Shown piece after piece: positions 3,365-22,022 of a DNA stretch of 64,000 nt. The notes beneath the pieces were generated by a model. The model made no database searches and was not told the DNA's origin. It saw only the letters and a list, made by a program, of their open reading frames with translations. Position numbers and translations under genes: made by a program. Positions within the stretch are counted from its first letter, which is position 1. The number at the start of each line of letters is the position of its first letter. Origin of the DNA: an uncultured Chloroflexia bacterium (GTDB taxonomy: Bacteria > Chloroflexota > Limnocylindria > Limnocylindrales > CSP1-4); the NCBI GenBank assembly GCA_963748235.1, contig CAVVHT010000009.1:1414756-1478755 (forward strand), written 5' to 3'.

Positions 3365-3809
3365 ACTGGCCGAGACCGCGGCGCTGCTGCATGATGTGGA
3401 CAAGGCTCTGCCGCGCGGTCATGCCCTGCGCCGCCTGGGCCACGGCACAGGCGGCGCCGAGTGGCTACGGACAAACGGGTACGACGACCTCGGCACTGCC
3501 GTGGCCAACCATCCCGTCGGCGTGCTGGCCGCGGCCGAGTCGTACGACGAGTTCGCGCAGCGCGTCGGCCTCGAGGGCTGCATCGTCGCCCTCGCCGACA
3601 AGCGAGCGCTGCAAGAGGTGGTCAGCCTCGACGTCCGATTCGATCGCTGGCGCAGGCGCTACCCGGATAGCGAGACGCTGCCCGTGGCACTGGGGCGCGC
3701 AAGAGAGATGGAGCGAGACATCTGCGCCATGGCGGGCATCGCGGCGGACGAGGTGCAGCGATTGGCGTGGGTCGACGACGCGCTCAAGCAGGCGGCACGG
3801 GCGGCCTAG
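3216..3809 (+). CDS. HD-domain phosphohydrolase
   Basis: In-frame ATG at 3216 inside track ORF 2970..3809. 'HSAVTGEIAAF...LLHDVDK' HD motif. The N-terminal 82 codons of the track ORF are Arg/Pro-rich overlap with comEC. Confidence 0.75.
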   Translation: MAIPTRIEAAAIIRSLKPKDTLLTHSAVTGEIAAFICAALVRRGVVVNTELAETAALLHDVDKALPRGHALRRLGHGTGGAEWLRTNGYDDLGTAVANHPVGVLAAAESYDEFAQRVGLEGCIVALADKRALQEVVSLDVRFDRWRRRYPDSETLPVALGRAREMERDICAMAGIAADEVQRLAWVDDALKQAARAA

Positions 3810-4945
3810 TGCCCACGGCACCTGTCGCCTACTTCTGGGGCGAGGACGCGTGGTCGATCGAGAACGCGGCACGCACGTTCGCGACGGCACTCGCAGCGGA
3901 CACCGGCACGCCGATCGACGTCTGGCGGACGAGCGGCGACGAGGATGACTCGGGCGATGGTGGTGCGGCCAGCGCGAGCAAGCGGCGAGGACGTGTGCTC
4001 GACCAGATCGCGGAGCGGCTCTCGACGGCGACGCTGTTCGGCGGCGGCACGCTCGTCGTCGTCAGGCAGCCCGGCTCGCTGGTGCGCGAGGCGACGGCGC
4101 GCGAGCGGCTGATAGCGCTCATCGCGAACGTGGCACCGGGCAACGCGCTGTGCTTCGTCGACCTCCTCGCTCAGGGATCGAAGGGCCTGCCCACCCAGCA
4201 GGGAGTGCTGCGCGACACAGTCGCCGCTGCCGGCGGTCAAACAAAGGAGTACGCGGCACTCTCGCGCGAGCGCATGGAGTCGTGGCTCACCGGTCGCGCC
4301 GCTGAGCTGGAGCTGACGCTCGGGCCGGGCGCCGCGCGGCTGCTCGCCGAGCGTGTCGGCGCCTACGTGCGCGAAGGGGACGTCGACCGGCGGCGGATGA
4401 GCGAGCTGGCCAATGCCGAGCTCGAGAAGCTGGCGTTGTACCGGCCCGGCGGCACGGCCTCGCGCGACGACATCGAGGCACTTGTCAGCGAGGCCGTGCC
4501 CGGCTCGACTTGGGCGTTCCTCGACGCCGTCGGCTATCGGCGCGCCGGAGAAGCCACCAATGTCGCCGATCGGCTGCTCGACGACGCGACCCCGATGCCG
4601 GTGCTCATCACCCAGATCCACCGCCGACTGCGCGACCTGATCGCAGTGCGCGACCACGTCGCGGCAGGGACGAAGCCCGCCGACCTCGTGCGCGAGATGA
4701 AGCTCCAGCCGTTCCGCGCCCAGAAGCTGAGCGAGCAGGCGCGCACGTGGGACCAGCCTGAGCTGGACGAGGCGCTGTCCGAGCTGTTCGAGCTCGATCT
4801 GCTGAGCAAGGGCATCGCCGGCGATGGATCGCCGCGCTCGCTGTCGGAGGACCGATCTCAGCTGGCGTTACTGGCCTGGATAGGAAAACACGCCAGCCGG
4901 CGTGGGCAGACACCGGCTGGCGTGCGGGTTAGGGACGGCGCCTGA
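3809..4945 (+). CDS. holA: DNA polymerase III delta subunit
   Basis: GTG at 3809 overlaps the upstream TAG (TAGTG). About 378 aa with a HolA-like N-terminus ('VAYFWGEDAWSIENAA', 'LFGGGTLVVV'). Conserved position after comEC. Confidence 0.75.
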   Translation: MPTAPVAYFWGEDAWSIENAARTFATALAADTGTPIDVWRTSGDEDDSGDGGAASASKRRGRVLDQIAERLSTATLFGGGTLVVVRQPGSLVREATARERLIALIANVAPGNALCFVDLLAQGSKGLPTQQGVLRDTVAAAGGQTKEYAALSRERMESWLTGRAAELELTLGPGAARLLAERVGAYVREGDVDRRRMSELANAELEKLALYRPGGTASRDDIEALVSEAVPGSTWAFLDAVGYRRAGEATNVADRLLDDATPMPVLITQIHRRLRDLIAVRDHVAAGTKPADLVREMKLQPFRAQKLSEQARTWDQPELDEALSELFELDLLSKGIAGDGSPRSLSEDRSQLALLAWIGKHASRRGQTPAGVRVRDGA

Positions 4946-6386: not shown

Positions 6387-7678
<1,292 letters not shown>

Positions 7679-7920: not shown

Positions 7921-9185
7921 TTAGGCCTCGTTCGCCGCGGCGCTCTTGGTCAGCGAGGCGAGGAACTCGGCGTTCGAGTTCGGTCTTCGCGAGGCGGTTG
8001 AGCAGCAGCTCGATGCCCTCGTTGGTGCCGACCGCGGAGAGCATCCGGCGCATCGTCCAGACCATGCGCAGCGTGCCTTCCTCGAGCAGCAGCTCCTCGC
8101 GGCGGGTGCCCGAGCGCTGGACGTCGATCGCCGGGAAGACGCGCTTCTCGGCCAGCTTGCGATCGAGGATGAGCTCCGAGTTGCCGGTGCCCTTGAACTC
8201 CTCGTAGATCACGTCGTCCATGCGCGAGCCGGTGTCGATCAGGCAGGTGCCGATGATCGTCAGCGAGCCGCCCTCCTCGATCTTGCGCGCGGCGCCGAAG
8301 AAGCGCTTGGGCGGGTACAGCGCGATCGGGTCGATACCACCGGACAGCGTTCGGCCCGACGGCGGCAGCGCCAGGTTGTAGGCACGCGCCAGGCGGGTGA
8401 TCGAGTCGAGCAGGATGACCACGTCGCGGCCGGTCTCGACCTGGCGCTTGGCGATCTCGAGCGCCATCTCGGCGGCGCGCGTGTGGTTCTCGGTCGGCTC
8501 GTCGAAGGTCGAGGAGATGACCTCGCCCTTGACCGAGCGGCGCATGTCGGTGACTTCCTCGGGCCGCTCGCCGATGAGCGCGACCATCAGCAGGATCTCG
8601 GGATAGTTGGCGGTGATGCCGTTGGCGATCTGCTTGAGCAGCATCGTCTTGCCCGCCTTGGGCGGCGAGACGATGAGCGCGCGCTGGCCCTTGCCGAGCG
8701 GGTTGACCAGGTTGATCAGCCGCTGGCTCAGGTTCTTGGGGTCCGTCTCGAGGTTGATCAGCTCGATCGGGTGGATCGGCGTCAGCGCGTCGAAGTGCGG
8801 CCGGCGCTTGGCGGTCTCGGGATCGACGCCGTTGACCGACTCGACGCGCACGCAGGCCCCAGTACTTCTCGCCGTCCTTGGGCTGGCGGATCACGCCGCC
8901 GACGCGGTCGCCGGCGCGCAGGCCGAAGCGGCGGACCTGGGAAGAGGAGACGTAGACGTCATCCGGGCTGGGCATCAGGCCGTGCCGGCGCATGAAGCCG
9001 TAGCCGTCGTCGACGATGTCGAGGATGCCGGTCACGTAGACCTGGCCGCTGCGCTCGACCTGGCGCTGGAGGATGTGCTCGACGAGGTCGTCCTGGCGCA
9101 TCTGGCGCGCGTTGTCGACCTCGAGATCGGCGCCGATCTGGACGAGCTGGTTGAAGTTCTTGGATTTGAGTTCGTTGATGTTCAT
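7921..9185 (-). pseudogene. rho: Transcription termination factor Rho, frame-disrupted as sequenced (2 frame changes)
   Basis: N-terminus 'MNINELKSKNFNQLVQIG...' (ORF 7950..9185) switches at ~8855 to ORF 7721..8851 ('RVESVNG...[10 protein letters not shown]...[11 protein letters not shown]'). After ~7985 a third frame reads '[19 protein letters not shown]' and stops at 7921-7923. Confidence 0.9.
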
Positions 9186-10389: not shown

Positions 10390-14039
<3,650 letters not shown>

Positions 14040-14054
14040 TCACCGGCAGGCTGC

Positions 14055-14075
14055 GCGGCTGCTCGCTGCAGCCGC
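14055..14075 (-). terminator. Perfect 8-bp GC-rich stem-loop 6 nt after the stop of the last propeller gene (no U-tract)
   Basis: 14055-14062 (GCGGCTGC) pairs with 14068-14075 (GCAGCCGC), with a 5-nt loop. Lies between the propeller array and the pyrG promoter region. Confidence 0.3.
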
Positions 14076-14080
14076 CACGC

Positions 14081-15197
14081 CTACGGCGCCGGCAGGGGCT
14101 GGAGGCGCGCACCCACTCCGGAAGCCTGAGCCGAACGGGATAGCGGCTGACCGTCCCGTCCAGGTCGAGGAACGCGAGCTTCACGTCGTGGTGACCTGCC
14201 AATGCCCTCGCCGACGGCGATCGAGATCAGCAGTCGCTGACCGTCAGGCGTCCAGCGCGGGCCGGTGTAGCGCTCCAGGCCATCCGCCTGGACTCTCGGC
14301 GATGACGGTCTGGCCGCTCCCGTCGGGCTGCATCGATGTAGATCGTCGACGGCTTGCTCATGTCTTTGATCGTGGATGCCGTATGTGCCGAAGACGATCA
14401 CGTCCGCGACCGGGCTCCAGTCGGGATCGCCGGCCCACATGTCCGGGGGAGTGAGGCGTTTGAAGATCGCCGCCGGCTGATCGGCACCGTGGCCACCTGC
14501 GAGCCGATCCACACGTCCTCTTCGGGCTCCGTGTCCCACTGGATTAGCTCGGCGACCGCCGTCCGGCCGTCCCTCGACCAGCGCGGGAAGAGCAGCTCGT
14601 CCGGCACATGGACCGTCGCGACCTCCGTCGTCTCGCCCGAGTCGAGGTCGAGCACCGTCAGGATGCCGACCAGGTCGGATCCGAACCGCTCTCGCCCGTC
14701 CTGGCAGACGTACATCAGCCTGTCGCCGTCGCGGCGAGTAGGCCGGGAAGTTGACGCCCAGCCGGCAGTCGTCGCTCGGTCCGATGAGCTCGCGTCGCCG
14801 CCTGCCCGTCAACGCCGACCGTCCAGATCGAGGTGCCCTCGTACCACTCGCCGACGACGAAAGCGATGGTCTGGCCGTCGGGCGACCAGTCGAGGACCGC
14901 GTGATCCTTGTCCGGCTCGATGTCGGTGGCCAGGGCCCGCCGGCCGGTCCCGTCCTGACGGATCGTTACGACGTCCTTGAAGTCACGCCCCGCGAACCAC
15001 TCGAAGGCGAGCAGCGCCTGGTCAGCCTCCGCTATCGCAGTCGCGGTCGCCGGACTGCTTGGCGCGACGGAGGAGGTGGTCGATGGGGATCCGGGCGGAG
15101 GGGATGATGCGCCGGGTGCCACCGCACAGCCAGTTGCGACCAGCAAAGAAACCGCCAGGACGACCCAGAAAGCCGAAATGCGCATCATCGTGTTCAT
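14081..15197 (-). pseudogene. PD40/TolB-like beta-propeller lipoprotein, paralog 1, frame-disrupted (at least 3 changes)
   Basis: Signal/lipobox 'LLVATGC', P/S/T linker, 'LDWSPDGQTIAF'. Continues through ORFs 14081..14812 and 14398..14715 ('PRWSRDGRTA', 'DPDWSPVADVIVF', 'GPRWTPDGQRLL'). Confidence 0.7.
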
Positions 15198-15265
15198 AAG
15201 GAGGTAGATGCCGCCGAAGACCGATGCGTCTCACGAAGCGACTTGTCGGCGGTGGACGCCGATCC

Positions 15266-16395
15266 CTATTGCGGACGTAGGTGGGCGTGGGTGCGTCGGA
15301 TGCCACCGGATTCCGTGACGAGCGTCCACGACTCAGTCACGAGGTTTCCCTCATCGTCGACGAATGCGATCCGCTCATCGCCCGGTCGAGCACGGACGAA
15401 CATGACTCGATCACCACCGTCCACCCAAGTCGCTTCGATGGCGATGCCTGAGTCGGGCTCAGCCGCGACCAGCTGCGTCAGATCCTGCCCGTCGATGCCG
15501 GCCGAGCTGATTTCGGCTGAGCTGAGGAAATCGGCTTCTGAGGCTGCCGCGGTGAACAGGATGGAATCGCCCGGAGCCCAATCCGGGGCGTCCGCGAATA
15601 CGTCATGGCGGGTGTCAGCCGCTGCGGTTCATCAAGGCCAATGCCGCTGACCGGCGCCACGGCAATGTAGGACTCGGTGCGAGAGGTTTGTGTCGCGTCG
15701 GGATACTTCTCGACGACGAAGACCAGCTGCTCTCCATCAGGCGACCAGCGTGGCGCGTAGTAGGCGCTGAGCCCGTCGGCCGTAGCGGCGACGGTGCTCA
15801 GCTCTCCGGTCGCGACGTCCAATATCTGGATCTCGGACGGACCCCAAGTTCCGTCGGGATCGAGGTCGTATCTGGCCAGGGCGATCATCGATTCGTCGGG
15901 CGACCATGCCGGATAAGCAAGCTGGAGACACGGCGCCTCACAGCTCACGAGGAGATGGGTATCCGACCCATCGGCCTGGGCCACCCAAATCTGCACCTCA
16001 GGCTCGTCAGTGAGGTCACTCTCCAGGTACATGTCGAACGCAATCGAGTCACCATCCGGCGACCAGGCTGGGTGTCCGACGTCAAAGCCGGGGATCGGAT
16101 CGGTCAGCAACGCGTGCTCATCAGTGCCATCGGGTCGAACCAACCGAATCGCATCTGCGCCTTCGCCGGAATCGGTTGCCTGGTAGACGATCCACGGCTC
16201 GCCCGGCAGAACGCCGCTCGACCCTGGTGACGGAGATCCTGTCGAAGGGTCCGAGCGCTTCGCAGTCGGCGACGGCGTACCCGACGCCTCTGGGGAGGCG
16301 GGGCTCGCAAGCGGCGTGGACGCACATGCAAACACCAATAGAGCGGCTATGGCTAGTGCGAGTCGCCGCGCCCGAAACGGTCGCTTTGTGGTCAT
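15266..16395 (-). pseudogene. PD40/TolB-like beta-propeller lipoprotein, paralog 2, one frame change (~15610)
   Basis: 'LLVFAC' lipobox, 'PGEPWIVY', 'HPAWSPDGDSIAF', 'YPAWSPDES', 'APRWSPDGEQLVF'. The tail 'HDVFADAPDWAPGDSILF...RTHAHLRPQ' is in another frame and ends at TAG 15266-15268. Confidence 0.75.
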
Positions 16396-16444
16396 GCCAG
16401 GTAGATGCCGCTCGCGACTCGGGCGTCCCTGGTTCTAAGCGTGT

Positions 16445-17559
16445 TCATGGCAACGGACGAAGACGAGGATGCGTTCCGCCAGGCGCACTCGGGGTCGTAG
16501 TCGCTGGTCGTAGGTTGGATCCGCCTGCGTCGACAGCCCACATTTGCGCCGTGGTGTAGTCCTCGCCGGTCACAAGCACGAAGATGACGCCACTTCCGTC
16601 GGGCAACCAGGTCGGCTGGACCGCATTCAACTCATCGTCGACCAGGGGCTCAGCACCAGAGCCATCAGTCCCCATCGTGTAGAGGTCATAGGCATCGCTG
16701 CCGTCCACAGGACGCCGCGAGTAGACAATCCGGCCATCGGTCGGATGCCAGTCGGGATAGTTGGCCCACTCGTCGGGTTCGGTCAGCTTGGTGATCGTTG
16801 CCGGGCTTGCCGCCAGGTCGACCATGGCAACCGACGTCGATTTCAGCTCCGAGTCCTCGGTGATGTTGGTCCATGTCTCGATCTGGGTGACGATCCTGTT
16901 CCGGTCTGGTGACCAGCGCGGATAGGCGAAGTAGTCGGCGCCAGCGCTCTCGGCGACCGTCGTCACCGCGCCGGATTTAACGTTCACGACTTCGAGCGTG
17001 CTGCCGTCGGTTATGCGGTTCTGATGCTCCCAGCGAACGAAAAGGACCGACTCGCCGTCTGGTGACCAGGCCGGAAACTCGGCGGCATCGCATGGCAGTA
17101 CGCAGTCGTACAGCACTCGGGAATTGCTGCCGTCGGCGTCGGAGATCCAGATGTCGCGATGCCCGTCTTCGTACGGCCAGACGTCGATCACAAAGGCGAG
17201 TTGAGAGCCGTCCGGCGACCAATCCGGATGGAGCTGCCAACGTCACCCGCGTTGTCGCCGGCGGCAATCGGCGCGTCGGGCGTCGCCCAATGCTCGTCTG
17301 TGCCATCGGGCCTGATGACGACGTTGCCGACACTTTCTGCTTCAGGTACACCCCACTCGTAGACGATCCACGCTTGGCCGGGGCGAACTCTTGTAGCTGA
17401 CTCCGGACTCGAGGTTGGTGAATCCGTAGGTGACGGCCTCGGCTCGTCGGTCGCTTGGACAGTGGGCGACGGCGTCGCCACCGGTGGCGCTGAGCCCGCG
17501 CATGCATTCGCAACGAGTGCCAAAGTGATGACCACACCCAAGCCGGTGTTTCGCTTCAT
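16445..17559 (-). pseudogene. PD40/TolB-like beta-propeller lipoprotein, paralog 3, one frame change (~17225)
   Basis: 'MKRNTGLGVVITLALVANAC' (inside ORF 17188..17607), 'PGQAWIVYEW'. Then ORF 16445..17191 ('FPAWSPDGESVLF', 'YPRWSPDRNRIV', 'YPDWHPTDGRIVY', ends 'GGTHPRLRPLP'). Confidence 0.75.
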
Positions 17560-17610
17560 GCAGTACTGATGCCGCTGGAGATCGATCTGTCCCACGATCA
17601 GGGCCATCGG

Positions 17611-18779
17611 TCACTCTGCGTTCGGGCCCCAGGCTGGATGGTTCATTTCCACGTTGGGTGCCTGCACGAGCACCGAGACGTTCGATCCGTCGGAATCCAT
17701 CAGACAGATTGGGAGCCCGCAGCCGAACACGATGCGGGACCCGTCGGGCGAGAAAGCGGGCTTGAAGGCGTCATGTTCGATATCGCCATACAGATAGTCG
17801 GGCGGCGCGGTCGGATCGTCAGCGGGCACGATCTCTATCTGCTGGCCGATGCCCGCGCTGCCGTCCTGGTTCGTGTTGTAGATGATCGATCGGCCGTCGC
17901 GCGTCCAATCTGGATGCACGATGTCGCCAGTGTTCGTCGTCGTCAAACGTCGCTCTTCGCCGGTCGTCAGGTTGCGGATCGTCAGTGCCCACGAATCCGT
18001 GGCTGGGTAGTAGCGGTCGTAGACGAGCTCATCTCCGTCAGGCGACAGGCGCCCTTCGCCACCGTAGGTATTCACGTCCCACAGAGGTCGCTGGTTGGCA
18101 CCGTCGCTATCCATCTGCCATATCGAGTGATGCACGTTGCCACACTCGATGGACCGATCGCAGGGCTCGGGAGCTACGGAGTACACAATCGACCGGCCGT
18201 CCGGTGTCCAGTCGGGCCACTCGGCATAGCCACGAGTGCTGGTCAGGACCTGCAGGTCGCTGCCATTGACATCGATCGTCGCAATCTGGAACGAGCCGTC
18301 CGACATGACGAGGGAGAAGGCAAGGCGACTGCCATCAGGCGAGAAACGCGGCCGCTCCACTTCGCACGAAAGGATGCGGACGGCGTCGGTTCCGTCGGGA
18401 TCAATCATGTAGATACCGCCAAGCAGCTGGGCGACGACGGTGTAGCGGCTGACCGGACCAAAGGCGATCCGCCCAGCGGGGTCGGGAGCCCGTCCTTGAG
18501 CTCGGCGATCTCGTTGAACCATCCGGGAGTTGGCCGGTCAGTGCATGCGGGCACGACCGCCGCGGGGGTGGGGGTTGCAGCCGCACTCGGCGTCGCAGCC
18601 GGCGTCGTGCGAACAGTGGGATCGACAGTCTGTTGGATGCTGGGCTCCGGAGAACGGCTCGCGGCCGTCGTTGGGCCCGGCGAATGTGTTCGGGCCGCGC
18701 CGGGTGAGCATCCACCCAGTAGAAGGGCGGCTACGGTCAGACATGCGAGCGTCCGCCGGCCGCTCATGGCTCGAGCCAC
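17611..18779 (-). pseudogene. PD40/TolB-like beta-propeller lipoprotein, paralog 4, one frame change (~18490)
   Basis: 'LLLGGCS' lipobox in ORF 18405..18779. The body is in ORF 17611..18522 ('RPRFSPDGSRLAF', 'WPDWTPDGRSIVY', 'RLSPDGDELVY', 'HPDWTRDGRSIIY', 'KPAFSPDGSRIVF'). Confidence 0.75.
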
Positions 18780-20138
18780 TGCCAGGTAAGTGACCCGACG
18801 TTGTCTTCGAGCTCGGCCAGCACCACCGGAGGATCATCCGAGCTCGGATCCAGGGCTTCCAGCCACGAGCGAAAGTGTTGCTCACCAGAGGGCGATGGAG
18901 CCAGTTCCTCGACGCGAGAGATCAGCAGCAGTCCGGCATCAGGCGACCAGGCCAGCTCTTGCAGTCCTTCGATCTCCGGGAATTCGTTGGGATCCCCCGC
19001 AGGTCGACCCGCCTCCACGGGTTGGACGACGAGGACTGGCATACCCGAATCCTCGTCCCAGTAGTGGTAGGCGATCGACCCGCCATCAGGCGACCAGCGG
19101 GGATCGCGCTCGTCAAGGGGCGTCGATGTCAACGGCACATCCGACAAGCCATCTGCCGCAACGACGAAAAGATCCAGGTCCGGATACAGGCTGCCGTGGT
19201 CGTGGCCATACACATCGAGTGCCGGCGCAGGCACTCCATCCGGCACACCGTTGTAGACGATGTATCTACTGTCTGGCGACCAGGCAAACTAGGGACTGTC
19301 AGTGCCCGGCCGCGACGTGATCCGTCTCACGTCGCCACTCTCGACATCTACGACGTCGATGCAACTGCGGTAATCGAACCCTCGTTCTCGCCGTTGCTAA
19401 GTCTCTGCATCACCGCGAAGGCAATGCTCTTCCCGTCCGGCGACCAGACCATGTCCCAGTAGTGGATGCCGCCTCTCGATGGAGGTTCGGCCATCAGGAA
19501 CCGGCGCTCGCCGGATTCGACATCGATAGCCAATAGGAGGACGTCGAGCTCTCGTCGCCTTCGCCGTCGCCGTCACGCAACTTCACCACGACCTGCGTCG
19601 CGTCCGGTGAAAACGCATGGCCGATCTGTTGGTGTGCGGAGATCTCGCGTGGGTCCGAGCCATCGGCATTGGCTCGAATACGCGCACGATCCGGTTCAAA
19701 CGTCACCCCAGCCGGTGAAGTAGGTCAGCCACCTGCCGTCGGCCGAGAAGAGCGGTCACGTTCCCTGAGCGATCTCGCGATCATTGCTGCCGTCCGCATT
19801 CATCAGATGGATGTGGTTGTAGGGCGGCTCATTGAGGTCACTGATCACATAGGCGATGAGGCCATTCCGGCCGATCGGCTTGGGCGTCGGTTGTTGAGCA
19901 GAAGGGACGCCGCGACGATCGCAACCACAAGAGCGAGCAGGAGGCCGGTAATGATCAGCATGTAGGAGGGCGACATTGCCGCTCGACCGAGCAACGGCCA
20001 TGTGAACTGTGGCCCCGTTCGCGCGACGGCATCGCGCGCGATGTCGGTTGCGTCGAAGTCCCGCACCAGAATATCGGCATAGGCCTGGACGCGTCGCTCG
20101 AAGCGCGCCTCGAAGCTGGTCATCTCGAACTCACTCAT
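18764..20138 (-). pseudogene. Putative anti-sigma factor (short cytoplasmic segment plus one TM helix) fused to a PD40 beta-propeller; 4 frame changes and 2 in-frame stops
   Basis: ATG 20138 overlaps the sigma stop (ATGAGTGA). 'MSEFEMTSFEARFERRV...MLIITGLLLALVVAIVAASLLL' TM helix, then PD40 pieces in ORFs 19756..20001, 19494..19706, 19348..19533 and 18764..19246. In-frame TGA at 19756-19758 and TAG at 19289-19291. Confidence 0.65.
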
Positions 20139-20673
20139 CCCCCAACTCCTTGCGCAGGCGTTCGAGCAGGCGCGCCAGACGCGCGCGCGTGCCGGACGCG
20201 GACATGCCGGTCGCTCGACCCAGCTCGGTGGAGTTGAGTCCGGCGACGTAGCGCAGGGCGAGAGCGCCCGATCGTCCGGGCGCCAGCTTGGCGAGCGCGA
20301 TGGCCAGGTCGATATCGGTCGATGGCCGGCTGGACGGGTGACAGGTCGAGAGACCGGTGCCACCACCGTGATCTCGCGGACGCTCCGGCGATATCGGCTG
20401 CGAACGATCTGACGAGCCTCGTTGGCGGCGATAGAGCACAGCCACGAGCCGAAGGCGATCGGGCTCGCGCACGCTGTCGAGGCGACGCCAGACGATCGGC
20501 CAGGCTGCGGCGACGGCCTCCTCGGCCAGATCGGCATTGCCGAGTCACGACGTAGCTAAGGCGAACCATGTCCGCGTGATGACGGTGGACGATGGCGCGA
20601 ATGCCGCCTCGTCGCCCTCGACGGCGAGCCGTATCAGCCCCTCCGCTGATCTCCGCGGCGACCGGGGCCGCAT
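20131..20673 (-). pseudogene. ECF (sigma-70 family group 4) sigma factor, frame-disrupted (at least 4 changes)
   Basis: '[25 protein letters not shown]' from ATG 20673, then 'RAIVHRHHADMVRLSYVVT', 'NADLAEEAVAAAWPIVWRRLDSVREPDR', 'WLCSIAANEARQIVRSRYRR', and region 4 'DLAIALAKLAPGRSGALALRYVAGLNSTELGRATGMSASGTRARLARLLERLRKEL'. These lie in alternating frames. Confidence 0.7.
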
Positions 20674-20734
20674 GCCGATCACGCCACACAGATGCTCGCC
20701 GAGCGGTCAAGTGATTTACCGCCCGGCGGCATAG

Positions 20735-21923
20735 TTAGTCGGTCGGCTGGAGGAAGCCGGCATAGCCATAGCCGAGCTCGTCGCCGAACCAGGTCAACTC
20801 GGGCGCGTTGATGTGCGCGGCGCCAGTGCCATCAGCATTCATCAGCGCCCATGTCTGGAAGCCCCAGAACGATGATTCGGCCGTCCGACGTCCAGCTCGG
20901 TGCCCAGCCGTCCGAGAAGTCGCCGCCGACCGAGACACAGGACTCGCAGAGATGAGTGAGGTTCGCGCCGTCCGGCGAGACGGTCCAGATGCCGGTATTG
21001 CCGGGGAAGTCGCCCCATCCCTCCGTTTCCCGGTTGGGCATCGTGCTGAAGACGATCGTTGAGCCGTCGGGCGACCAGTCCGGGTCGGCTGCCCATTCGC
21101 CAACGGGTCTGGGTAGTTCGCGAACGCGGGAGCCGTCGGCCTGGACGATGAAGAGCCGCGTCTCAGTCGCGTACTGGTCGTCGGCGGCCAGCAACGTCCG
21201 CTGGTAGACGATCTCCGAACCGTCGGGCGACCAGCTCGGTTGGGCGACGTAGCCGTCGGACACCGGAAAGCGGGTTTCCTCCAGGTATTCGACCTGGCCG
21301 CCGGCCAGATCGCGGATACCGATCTCGCTGAAGTTCGCGTCAGGGCGCGGGTCGAAGTGGACGAAAGCAATTCGCTGGCCGTCGGACGAGAAGGCGGGCT
21401 CCAGCTCCAGGCACTCGTTCTCATCGCCGCTACAGGATGTCGAGATGAGGGTCGGCGCGCCACCGTCGATTGGGACGGTCCAGACCCGGTACGGAGCGAG
21501 CCACGTCGAGTATGCGACGGTCTGTCCGTCAGGCGAAATGTCCGGTGCAGCCTTCCCGGCGGGCGTCCCAGGAGCAAGCTCGTGCAGGTCGGTGCCGTCG
21601 GCGCGCGCCAGCCAGATCATCCGGTTGTCGAAGTCGAACCCCTCTGATGAGCCATCCGGCGCCTGGCCGAAATGCTCGAACACGATCCAACCTGGCAGAT
21701 CGGTGTAGCCGGCAGACGTGCTGCGCAACGTTGGTCGAGGCGTGGACGACTCCAGGTCGGTCGAGCTGGTTGGGGAGGGCTCGCTGGAGGCACTTGGGGT
21801 AGGAGCCTGCGGTGATGCTGACGTCGCCACCGGCGACGGCGCGGGCACGCCTCCCGAGCAACCGATCACCACGGCAGTCAGGAACGCGGCCGCGACGACG
21901 GAACCACTTCGGATGTTGAGCAT
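20735..21923 (-). pseudogene. PD40/TolB-like beta-propeller lipoprotein, paralog 6, one frame change (~20870)
   Basis: 'AVVIGCSGG' lipobox, 'LPGWIVFEH', 'APDISPDGQTVAY', 'EPAFSSDGQRIAF', 'QPSWSPDGSEIVY', 'DPDWSPDGSTIVF'. The tail 'QTWALMNADGTGAAHI...GFLQPTD' is in the ORF 20735..21577 frame. GGGAGG RBS 5 nt before the ATG. Confidence 0.75.
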
Positions 21924-21979
21924 TGCGACCTCCCGGAGGGTGACTTGTCCCCTGGGAGGTAGATGCGCGATGCAAACAA

Positions 21980-22004
21980 AACGTCCCGCCGGCTGAAATG
22001 TCCC
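21980..22004 (-). promoter_or_regulatory. Candidate ECF-type promoter GGGAC-N16-CGTT upstream of the propeller/sigma operon
   Basis: Minus strand reads GGGAC (22004-22000), a 16-nt spacer, then CGTT (21983-21980) followed by TTGTTTG. About 57 nt upstream of the paralog-6 ATG. The -35 deviates from the canonical GGAAC. Confidence 0.3.
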
Positions 22005-22022
22005 GCCGGGAGCGGCGGAAAG

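Follow-up and report, generated by a model that had tools for sequence, protein, structure and literature searches.

An overlapping pair of genes on the minus strand occupies positions 18764 to 20682 of a 64,000-nucleotide (nt) stretch of DNA from an uncultured Chloroflexia bacterium (GenBank assembly GCA_963748235.1, contig CAVVHT010000009.1, positions 1,414,756 to 1,478,755), which is referred to below as the window. The upstream gene (20682-20131) is predicted to encode an extracytoplasmic function (ECF, group 4) sigma-70 factor and was delimited by frameshift-aware alignment to the sigma gene of a relative, G019, and by nucleotide alignment to a metagenomic contig, L046. The downstream gene (20138-18764) was delimited by alignments and by its intact orthologue P0001, and encodes a membrane-anchored propeller protein that is a putative anti-sigma factor. 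Its product consists, in order, of an acidic N-terminus, a hydrophobic stretch and PD40 repeats; the hydrophobic stretch in the translation, SPSYMLIITGLLLALVVAIVAASLLL (19899..19976, minus strand), is a predicted membrane-spanning segment and matches helix 57-83 of the structural model of P0001. An earlier reading made from the letters alone (the sequence-only reading) had noted that the two genes overlap. Indeed, the sigma stop codon TGA (20133-20131) and the downstream ATG (20138-20136) lie within the string ATGAGTGA (20138-20131, minus strand), which was read directly from the sequence and is identical in L046. The same reading had started the sigma gene at an ATG at 20673, giving a gene of 543 nt; the GTG at 20682 is the likelier start, as in the orthologues.

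The locus was found, above 69% nt identity, in none of 24 genomes of the same genus. Use of the read-through translation as a protein query retrieved P0001 (453 amino acids [aa]) on the Logan contig L046. Gene order on this contig (LysM, a 193-aa gene, a sigma gene of 180 aa, P0001, a 315-aa gene and two PD40 genes) is syntenic with the window, all of its genes are intact, and the pair has the same overlap. Nucleotide identity to L046 is 72% over the locus, and the frame-restored sigma factor and the propeller protein share 81% and approximately 66% of their residues with the orthologues, respectively (the latter compared with P0001). The pair in G019 was considered as an orthologue and was rejected as a paralogue, since its two proteins share 56% and 37% aa identity with those of this genome where other genes share 90-97%. 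Two exact-pattern scans of public metagenome contigs, one around the in-frame TAG described below and one across the gene overlap, returned no match.

The intact sigma factor of L046 exceeded the cut-offs of TIGR02937 (64.1 versus 42.9), PF04542 (36.7 versus 24) and PF08281 (31.1 versus 25.7). The largest unbroken fragment of the sigma gene in this genome corresponds to sigma region 4 and scored just below the cut-off of PF04545 (22.6 versus 24.1). The best NCBIfam subfamily match of the L046 protein was the SigE family (TIGR02983), the cut-off of which was not passed (90.5 bits versus 141.55). By these matches the protein classifies as an ECF (group 4) sigma-70 factor with predicted sigma-2 and sigma-4 regions only.

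The sigma gene is preceded by a 42-nt element, AATCACTTGACC...GAGCATCTG (20675..20716, minus strand), of the form AATCAC-N16-CATCT. This element is identical to L046 (about 1455-1500) at 41 of 42 positions, against 72% for the locus overall, and is recognisable in the contig L087 and in G019 as well. It ends 7-8 nt before the GTG/ATG start codon of the sigma gene, a geometry that suggests a leaderless sigma mRNA, and it may function as a promoter. In a regulon search the strict AATCAC-N16-CATCT motif was unique in the genome. A 12-nt string, 'GCGCATCTAC' (window position 21992), was also considered as a signal upstream of the propeller genes and was rejected as not specific, because most of its approximately 50 genomic occurrences fall within genes.

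Neither His nor Cys is present up to about residue 50 of the downstream protein, and the N-terminal segment thus lacks the HxxxCxxC zinc motif, as the sequence-only reading had stated. No anti-sigma family of Pfam was matched by the N-terminal 92 residues even at E values up to 0.1. In the AlphaFold model of P0001, built from a 29-sequence alignment, the mean predicted local distance difference test score (pLDDT) was 87.9 and mostly 85-98 across the propeller blocks. The model comprises two N-terminal helices (6-21 and 30-40, of moderate confidence, pLDDT 61-84), a disordered linker, a membrane helix (57-83) and a propeller (93-448). With no zinc motif, and with two helices before the membrane helix in place of a three-helix bundle and a fourth helix, the protein fits neither the zinc-binding anti-sigma (ZAS) group nor class I. 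Its best matches among solved structures were TolB (E = 6e-14) and the propellers of S9 peptidases. PF07676 (PD40) was matched with 36.3 bits by the C-terminal fragment from this genome and with 55.9 bits by the orthologue (cut-off 20.9).

The assignment of this protein as an anti-sigma factor had been said to rest only on position and topology. It now rests on more than these, because both the pairing and an N-terminal module are conserved. A sigma gene lies directly upstream of a membrane-propeller gene in six of six contexts (this genome, L046, L087, L093, L094 and G019 [L003]); the overlap is 8 nt long in this genome, in L046 and in L087 (an ENA contig), and L093 and L094 carry adjacent pairs. 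The gene thus lies directly downstream of an ECF sigma gene in a pairing conserved across relatives, by which an anti-sigma gene is recognised operationally, and the recurrence of gene order and 8-nt overlap in intact orthologues bears out the sigma/anti-sigma coupling that had been proposed. The N-terminal motif and the membrane helix are conserved in more distant relatives, and the outer domain varies among PD40, RCC1-like and Kelch-like propellers; the last two labels were given by motif and not by search, with faint precomputed Pfam Kelch matches in L087.

Both genes are interrupted as assembled. Breaks were counted by frameshift-aware protein-to-DNA alignment and by nucleotide alignment to the intact orthologue; a coding-frame (codon-usage) hidden Markov model (HMM), which misses short segments and is too coarse for counts, was used for a map of relative density only. 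In alignments to the G019 sigma gene and to L046, the sigma gene had a surplus base at three sites and lacked one at three others (near 20595, 20543, 20450, 20323, 20277 and 20262), six single-base indels in all, and its pieces were spread over all three frames. The damage reported for this gene in the sequence-only reading is therefore present in the assembled sequence, and its count of at least four corrections was short of the six found. The net frame of the membrane-propeller gene shifts at least four times (near 19890, 19698/19679, 19530 and 19377), in agreement with the four corrections assigned to it. In the nucleotide alignment to L046, all indels of the pair were single-base and ran in both directions, with no larger deletions. 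Indel density in the sigma gene (~11 per kb) was the highest measured, compared with 4.7 per kb in obg and 2-3.6 per kb in the worst long genes elsewhere; the description of the pair as the most damaged locus holds, in that it has the densest disabling changes measured in the window. The frame HMM and the alignments place a dense-defect patch at 19290..20875 (no strand), which holds all 10-11 frame breaks and both in-frame stops of the pair and extends into the 3' end of the upstream PD40 paralogue, where there is one frame break. The final 525 nt of the membrane-propeller gene are free of defects (p = 0.016 under uniform spread).

The two in-frame stops reported for the downstream gene are both present and in frame. 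The TGA (19758-19756, minus strand) lies between '...NDREIAQGT' and 'PLFSADGRWLTYF', and the TAG (19291-19289, minus strand) between '...RPGTDSP' and 'FAWSPDSRYIVY', each with homology in the same frame on both sides. The residue aligned with the TGA varies among homologues (Asn in P0001, Ala in P0002-4 and Cys in G019), and the TGA differs at all three bases from the AAC of L046. The TAG aligns to a Tyr codon, TAT, of L046, from which it differs by one base, with well-conserved flanks. A compensating pair of indels was considered as the source of the TAG and was rejected, since the closer orthologue L046 shows a plain TAT/TAG difference between conserved flanks. A context-specific error at CCCTAG was likewise rejected: the string occurs 57.6 times per Mb, versus 43.3 in a relative, and is not enriched, and the stops found with the HMM share no motif. 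Three in-frame TAGs do follow a CCC codon, including the TAG of the locus and a doubtful third site at C9:726596, which may be due to chance.

The genome was assembled into 3.04 Mb in 10 contigs, with an estimated completeness of 72.6% and contamination of 0.23%; so few contigs together with so low a completeness would be expected if marker genes were frame-broken. rpoB is intact. The only copy of obg (window 6390-7678) contains six frame breaks at 79% aa identity to an intact orthologue, and the only copy of rho (window 7927-9185) contains two at 95%. Both genes lie in the window, 10 kb from the sigma pair, and are intact and adjacent to each other in relatives. The defects of the pair are thus of the same class as those in essential single-copy genes that are otherwise conserved, as consensus error would predict. 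A genome-wide comparison of 605 orthologue pairs, covering 672 kb, with 1.2 Mb of the single-contig relative G002 gave at least one frame change in 114 orthologues (18.8%) and a total of at least 179 changes, which is a lower bound. Broken genes cluster, having a broken neighbour in 34% of cases versus 19% overall, and 4-9 breaks each are present in long genes with 79-90% identity to the orthologue. In the six conserved genes aligned in detail, approximately 80% of the frame breaks were due to an extra base (26 extra versus 6 missing). In the frame HMM, two blocks of the window, 5.2-9.2 kb and 13-25 kb, were within the top 1-10% genome-wide for frame changes, and the remaining window was ordinary.

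Low-coverage nanopore bins are known to retain indels that fragment gene calls (PMC9262707), and the breaks described here may have this origin. As in frameshift-fragmented long-read metagenome bins (PMC9262707; proovframe preprint 10.1101/2021.08.23.457338), the single-base indels fall in conserved and essential genes, are patchy along the genome and lower the completeness estimate. The present case differs from those bins in that the indels lie mostly outside long homopolymers and in that this locus also has two substitution-type stops.

Isolated and well-flanked in-frame stops were found at only two places in the 672-kb sample, both at Tyr codons (C9:717058, TAG; C9:721042, TAA). They lie 4 kb apart inside the frameshift-rich region C9:716-744 kb, and one of the two genes, 92% identical to its orthologue, has two frame breaks as well. 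Stops of this kind therefore do occur with error patches. In addition, the sigma indel rate of 1.1% suggests that the consensus at the locus is of near-raw-read quality, which makes an origin of the stops in substitution errors possible. The argument that nonsense substitutions are not the usual signature of indel-type error was fair, in that the number of stops is nominally above the genome-wide ratio; similar stops do occur in the other error patch.

Substitutions were compared in relative-rate analyses with three outgroups. In the propeller protein, 23, 29 and 28 changes were unique to this genome, versus 33, 27 and 26 to the orthologue; in the sigma factor the counts were 10, 8 and 5 versus 8, 5 and 6. 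Among sites invariant in four other homologues, differences were present at 9 of 109 in this genome and at 10 of 110 in the orthologue. Under the usual ratio of ~10 substitutions per indel, which the neutral expectation assumes, eleven real neutral indels would be accompanied by ~5.7% substitutions and thus by ~25 extra unique changes in the propeller protein, 3.6 standard deviations from what was observed. Neither protein shows the lineage-specific excess that relaxed constraint in a decaying pseudogene would leave.

The pair is best read as an ordinary ECF sigma and membrane-sensor pair that lies in one of many error patches. We consider it likely, with reasonable though not high confidence, that the locus is a normal and probably functional module and that most or all of its breaks arose as consensus errors in a long-read assembly of low accuracy; both stop codons may likewise be errors. 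The sequence-only reading had suggested a genuine decaying pseudogene, and the density of disabling changes (the highest measured in the window), the lesser damage of the neighbouring genes and the evolutionary instability of the surrounding island would all suit an old pair in which every break and both stops are real and accumulated without selection. Such long-term decay is highly improbable and was rejected, because the ~25 extra changes expected in the PD40 protein are missing, the indels are all single bases in both directions without larger deletions, the damage patch is offset from the genes, and the upstream element is conserved at 41 of 42 positions. The same type of break is seen in obg, rho and ~19% of orthologues, essential single-copy genes among them; substitutions are balanced between the lineages, and the damage ignores gene boundaries. 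No support for a long-decaying pseudogene came from the comparison with orthologues that had been proposed as a check, as the pair in L046 is intact.

Several observations weigh against an origin of the damage in consensus error. The sigma indel density is above anything else measured, and the genes directly flanking the pair are far less damaged (0-1 breaks per kb). The balance of three extra and three missing bases in the sigma gene departs from the ~80% of extra bases elsewhere, a difference that is not significant. The locus has two stops per ~11 breaks, versus 2-3 per at least 179 genome-wide (Fisher p = 0.023-0.037), and the probability of at least two stops is 0.11 at a local substitution error of 1% and 0.30 at 2%, so that two stops are likely only if the local error is ~1-2%, near raw-read quality. 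A recent genuine inactivation, in which one or both nonsense codons are real, fixed or polymorphic, and most frame breaks are assembly errors on top, fits equally well in kind. The nominally raised ratio of stops to frameshifts speaks for it, as do the isolation of the stops (at least 58 nt from the nearest frame break, with same-frame homology around them), the single base that separates the TAG from the Tyr codon of the orthologue, and the position of the locus in an 8-kb species-variable island, absent from the relative G016, where gene loss is common; the relative-rate test is compatible with ~1-2% extra divergence. Two independent nonsense mutations without a measurable excess of substitutions would be unusual, however. 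No other part of the window has errors as dense as the patch that holds the stops, isolated stops of a like kind are found in conserved genes of another such patch, and conservation extends to both the promoter-like element and the amino-acid sequence of the sigma factor. We regard recent inactivation as unlikely, if far from negligible. If the stop at codon ~127 were real, the protein would keep its N-terminal helices and membrane helix but lose the sensor domain, and such a truncation could deregulate the sigma factor. Read-through of the TGA and TAG via selenocysteine, a suppressor tRNA or a changed code would draw on the alignment of the TGA with Cys in one paralogous homologue, G019. This has next to no probability: neither a tRNA-Sec nor a suppressor tRNA was found, both tRNA-Trp genes have a CCA anticodon, closer homologues have Asn or Ala at the TGA position, TGA and TAG are ordinary stops throughout, including the sigma stop itself, and the frame breaks would be left unexplained. 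Separately, a second, odd 82-nt tRNA-Trp call was obtained at C9:716078-716159.

If the damage is consensus error, neither frame breaks nor even in-frame stops in this assembly should count as signs of gene decay until they are backed by reads. In this genome, and in sister long-read bins, such errors would distort pseudogene calls, estimated completeness and the number of genes counted.

The pair belongs to a conserved sigma and membrane-propeller module with an unusually short, zinc-free, putative sigma-binding part and swappable sensors. In the proposed mechanism, the ECF sigma gene would be transcribed from the conserved promoter right at its start codon, giving a leaderless message, and the ATGAGTGA overlap would couple its translation to that of the single-pass membrane protein. 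The short two-helix cytoplasmic N-terminus would keep the sigma factor inactive, the extracytoplasmic PD40 beta-propeller would sense a cell-envelope or external ligand, and the sigma factor would be freed upon the signal, most likely via regulated proteolysis of the membrane protein. These three roles (binding of the sigma factor, sensing and proteolytic release) are the ones that may be expected of the parts by analogy with known systems. Should the binding and the promoter hold true, a compact sensor architecture would be added to the known ECF systems. A bolder reading, which we hold to be rather doubtful, is that the module represents an undescribed ECF family that combines a minimal two-helix, class II-like segment, a membrane helix and interchangeable propellers (PD40, RCC1-like and Kelch-like) with a leaderless conserved promoter, in arrays of secreted PD40 paralogues, and that its sensor was here possibly truncated recently by real nonsense.

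The module resembles ECF group 4 sigma factors with single-pass membrane anti-sigma factors (SigW/RsiW, SigE/RseA and SigK/RskA) in having sigma-2 and sigma-4 regions only and a translationally coupled partner whose N-terminus is cytoplasmic and is followed by a single membrane helix and an outer sensor domain; a promoter-like element before the sigma gene, suggesting autoregulation, is a further likeness to systems of the SigW/RsiW type. It differs from these in its cytoplasmic part, which comprises ~45 residues and two predicted helices versus the four helices and ~80-90 residues of class I, and in its partner, which lacks a zinc motif and matched no anti-sigma family of Pfam or NCBIfam. Class II anti-sigma domains (CnrY and NepR) form a two-helix clamp around the sigma factor (PMC6101532), with contacts to its sigma-2 and sigma-4 surfaces. 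The putative sigma-binding part of the protein described here is similar to these in size and helix count, with two short predicted helices before the membrane helix or linker; no sequence similarity to them was found, however, and domain searches with the N-terminal segment gave no anti-sigma family. CnrY is small and has no large sensor domain, whereas in the present protein the two helices are joined to a beta-propeller of 360 residues. The two modelled helices thus appear closer to the class II clamp than to the four-helix class I, a likeness in size and shape only. With TolB and the S9 peptidases, which are its best fold matches, the protein shares a propeller of PD40 repeats. It is not TolB (TIGR02800, 66.8 bits versus a cut-off of 343), it has neither the TolB N-terminal domain nor a peptidase domain, and its propeller differs in having an N-terminal membrane helix as anchor and a sigma factor as partner.

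The sigma pair sits in a fast-changing 8-kb island (window ~14028-22008) with a six-gene PD40 array, which adjoins pyrG on the far side from rho and obg. In the closest relative, G016 (88-90% nt identity in the flanks), the island is absent and 0.9 kb with one hydrolase-like gene is found instead. In the short-read relatives G019 and G014 the island borders coincide exactly with contig ends, and the more distant G008 and G018 carry other sigma and propeller sets at the same site.

Both neighbours of the pair are PD40 propeller paralogues by Pfam. The downstream paralogue (17611..18537, minus strand) has 308 open codons and scored 77.4 bits against PD40. The upstream paralogue (20735..22022, minus strand) was delimited from the list of open reading frames and from the coding-frame HMM, which changes frame at 20870/20871. 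It has an open frame of 396 codons, yet its real C-terminus, '...GFLQPTD' ('...LMNADGTGAAHINAPELTWFGDELGYGYAGFLQPTD'), lies in another frame that ends at 20735, which indicates a frame break near 20870. In L046, the 315-aa gene that follows the membrane-propeller gene (3745-4692) gave a weak match to Peptidase_S41 (E = 0.002, below the cut-off), and a PD40 paralogue stands at its place in the window; a tail-specific protease beside an anti-sigma gene would fit regulated proteolysis.

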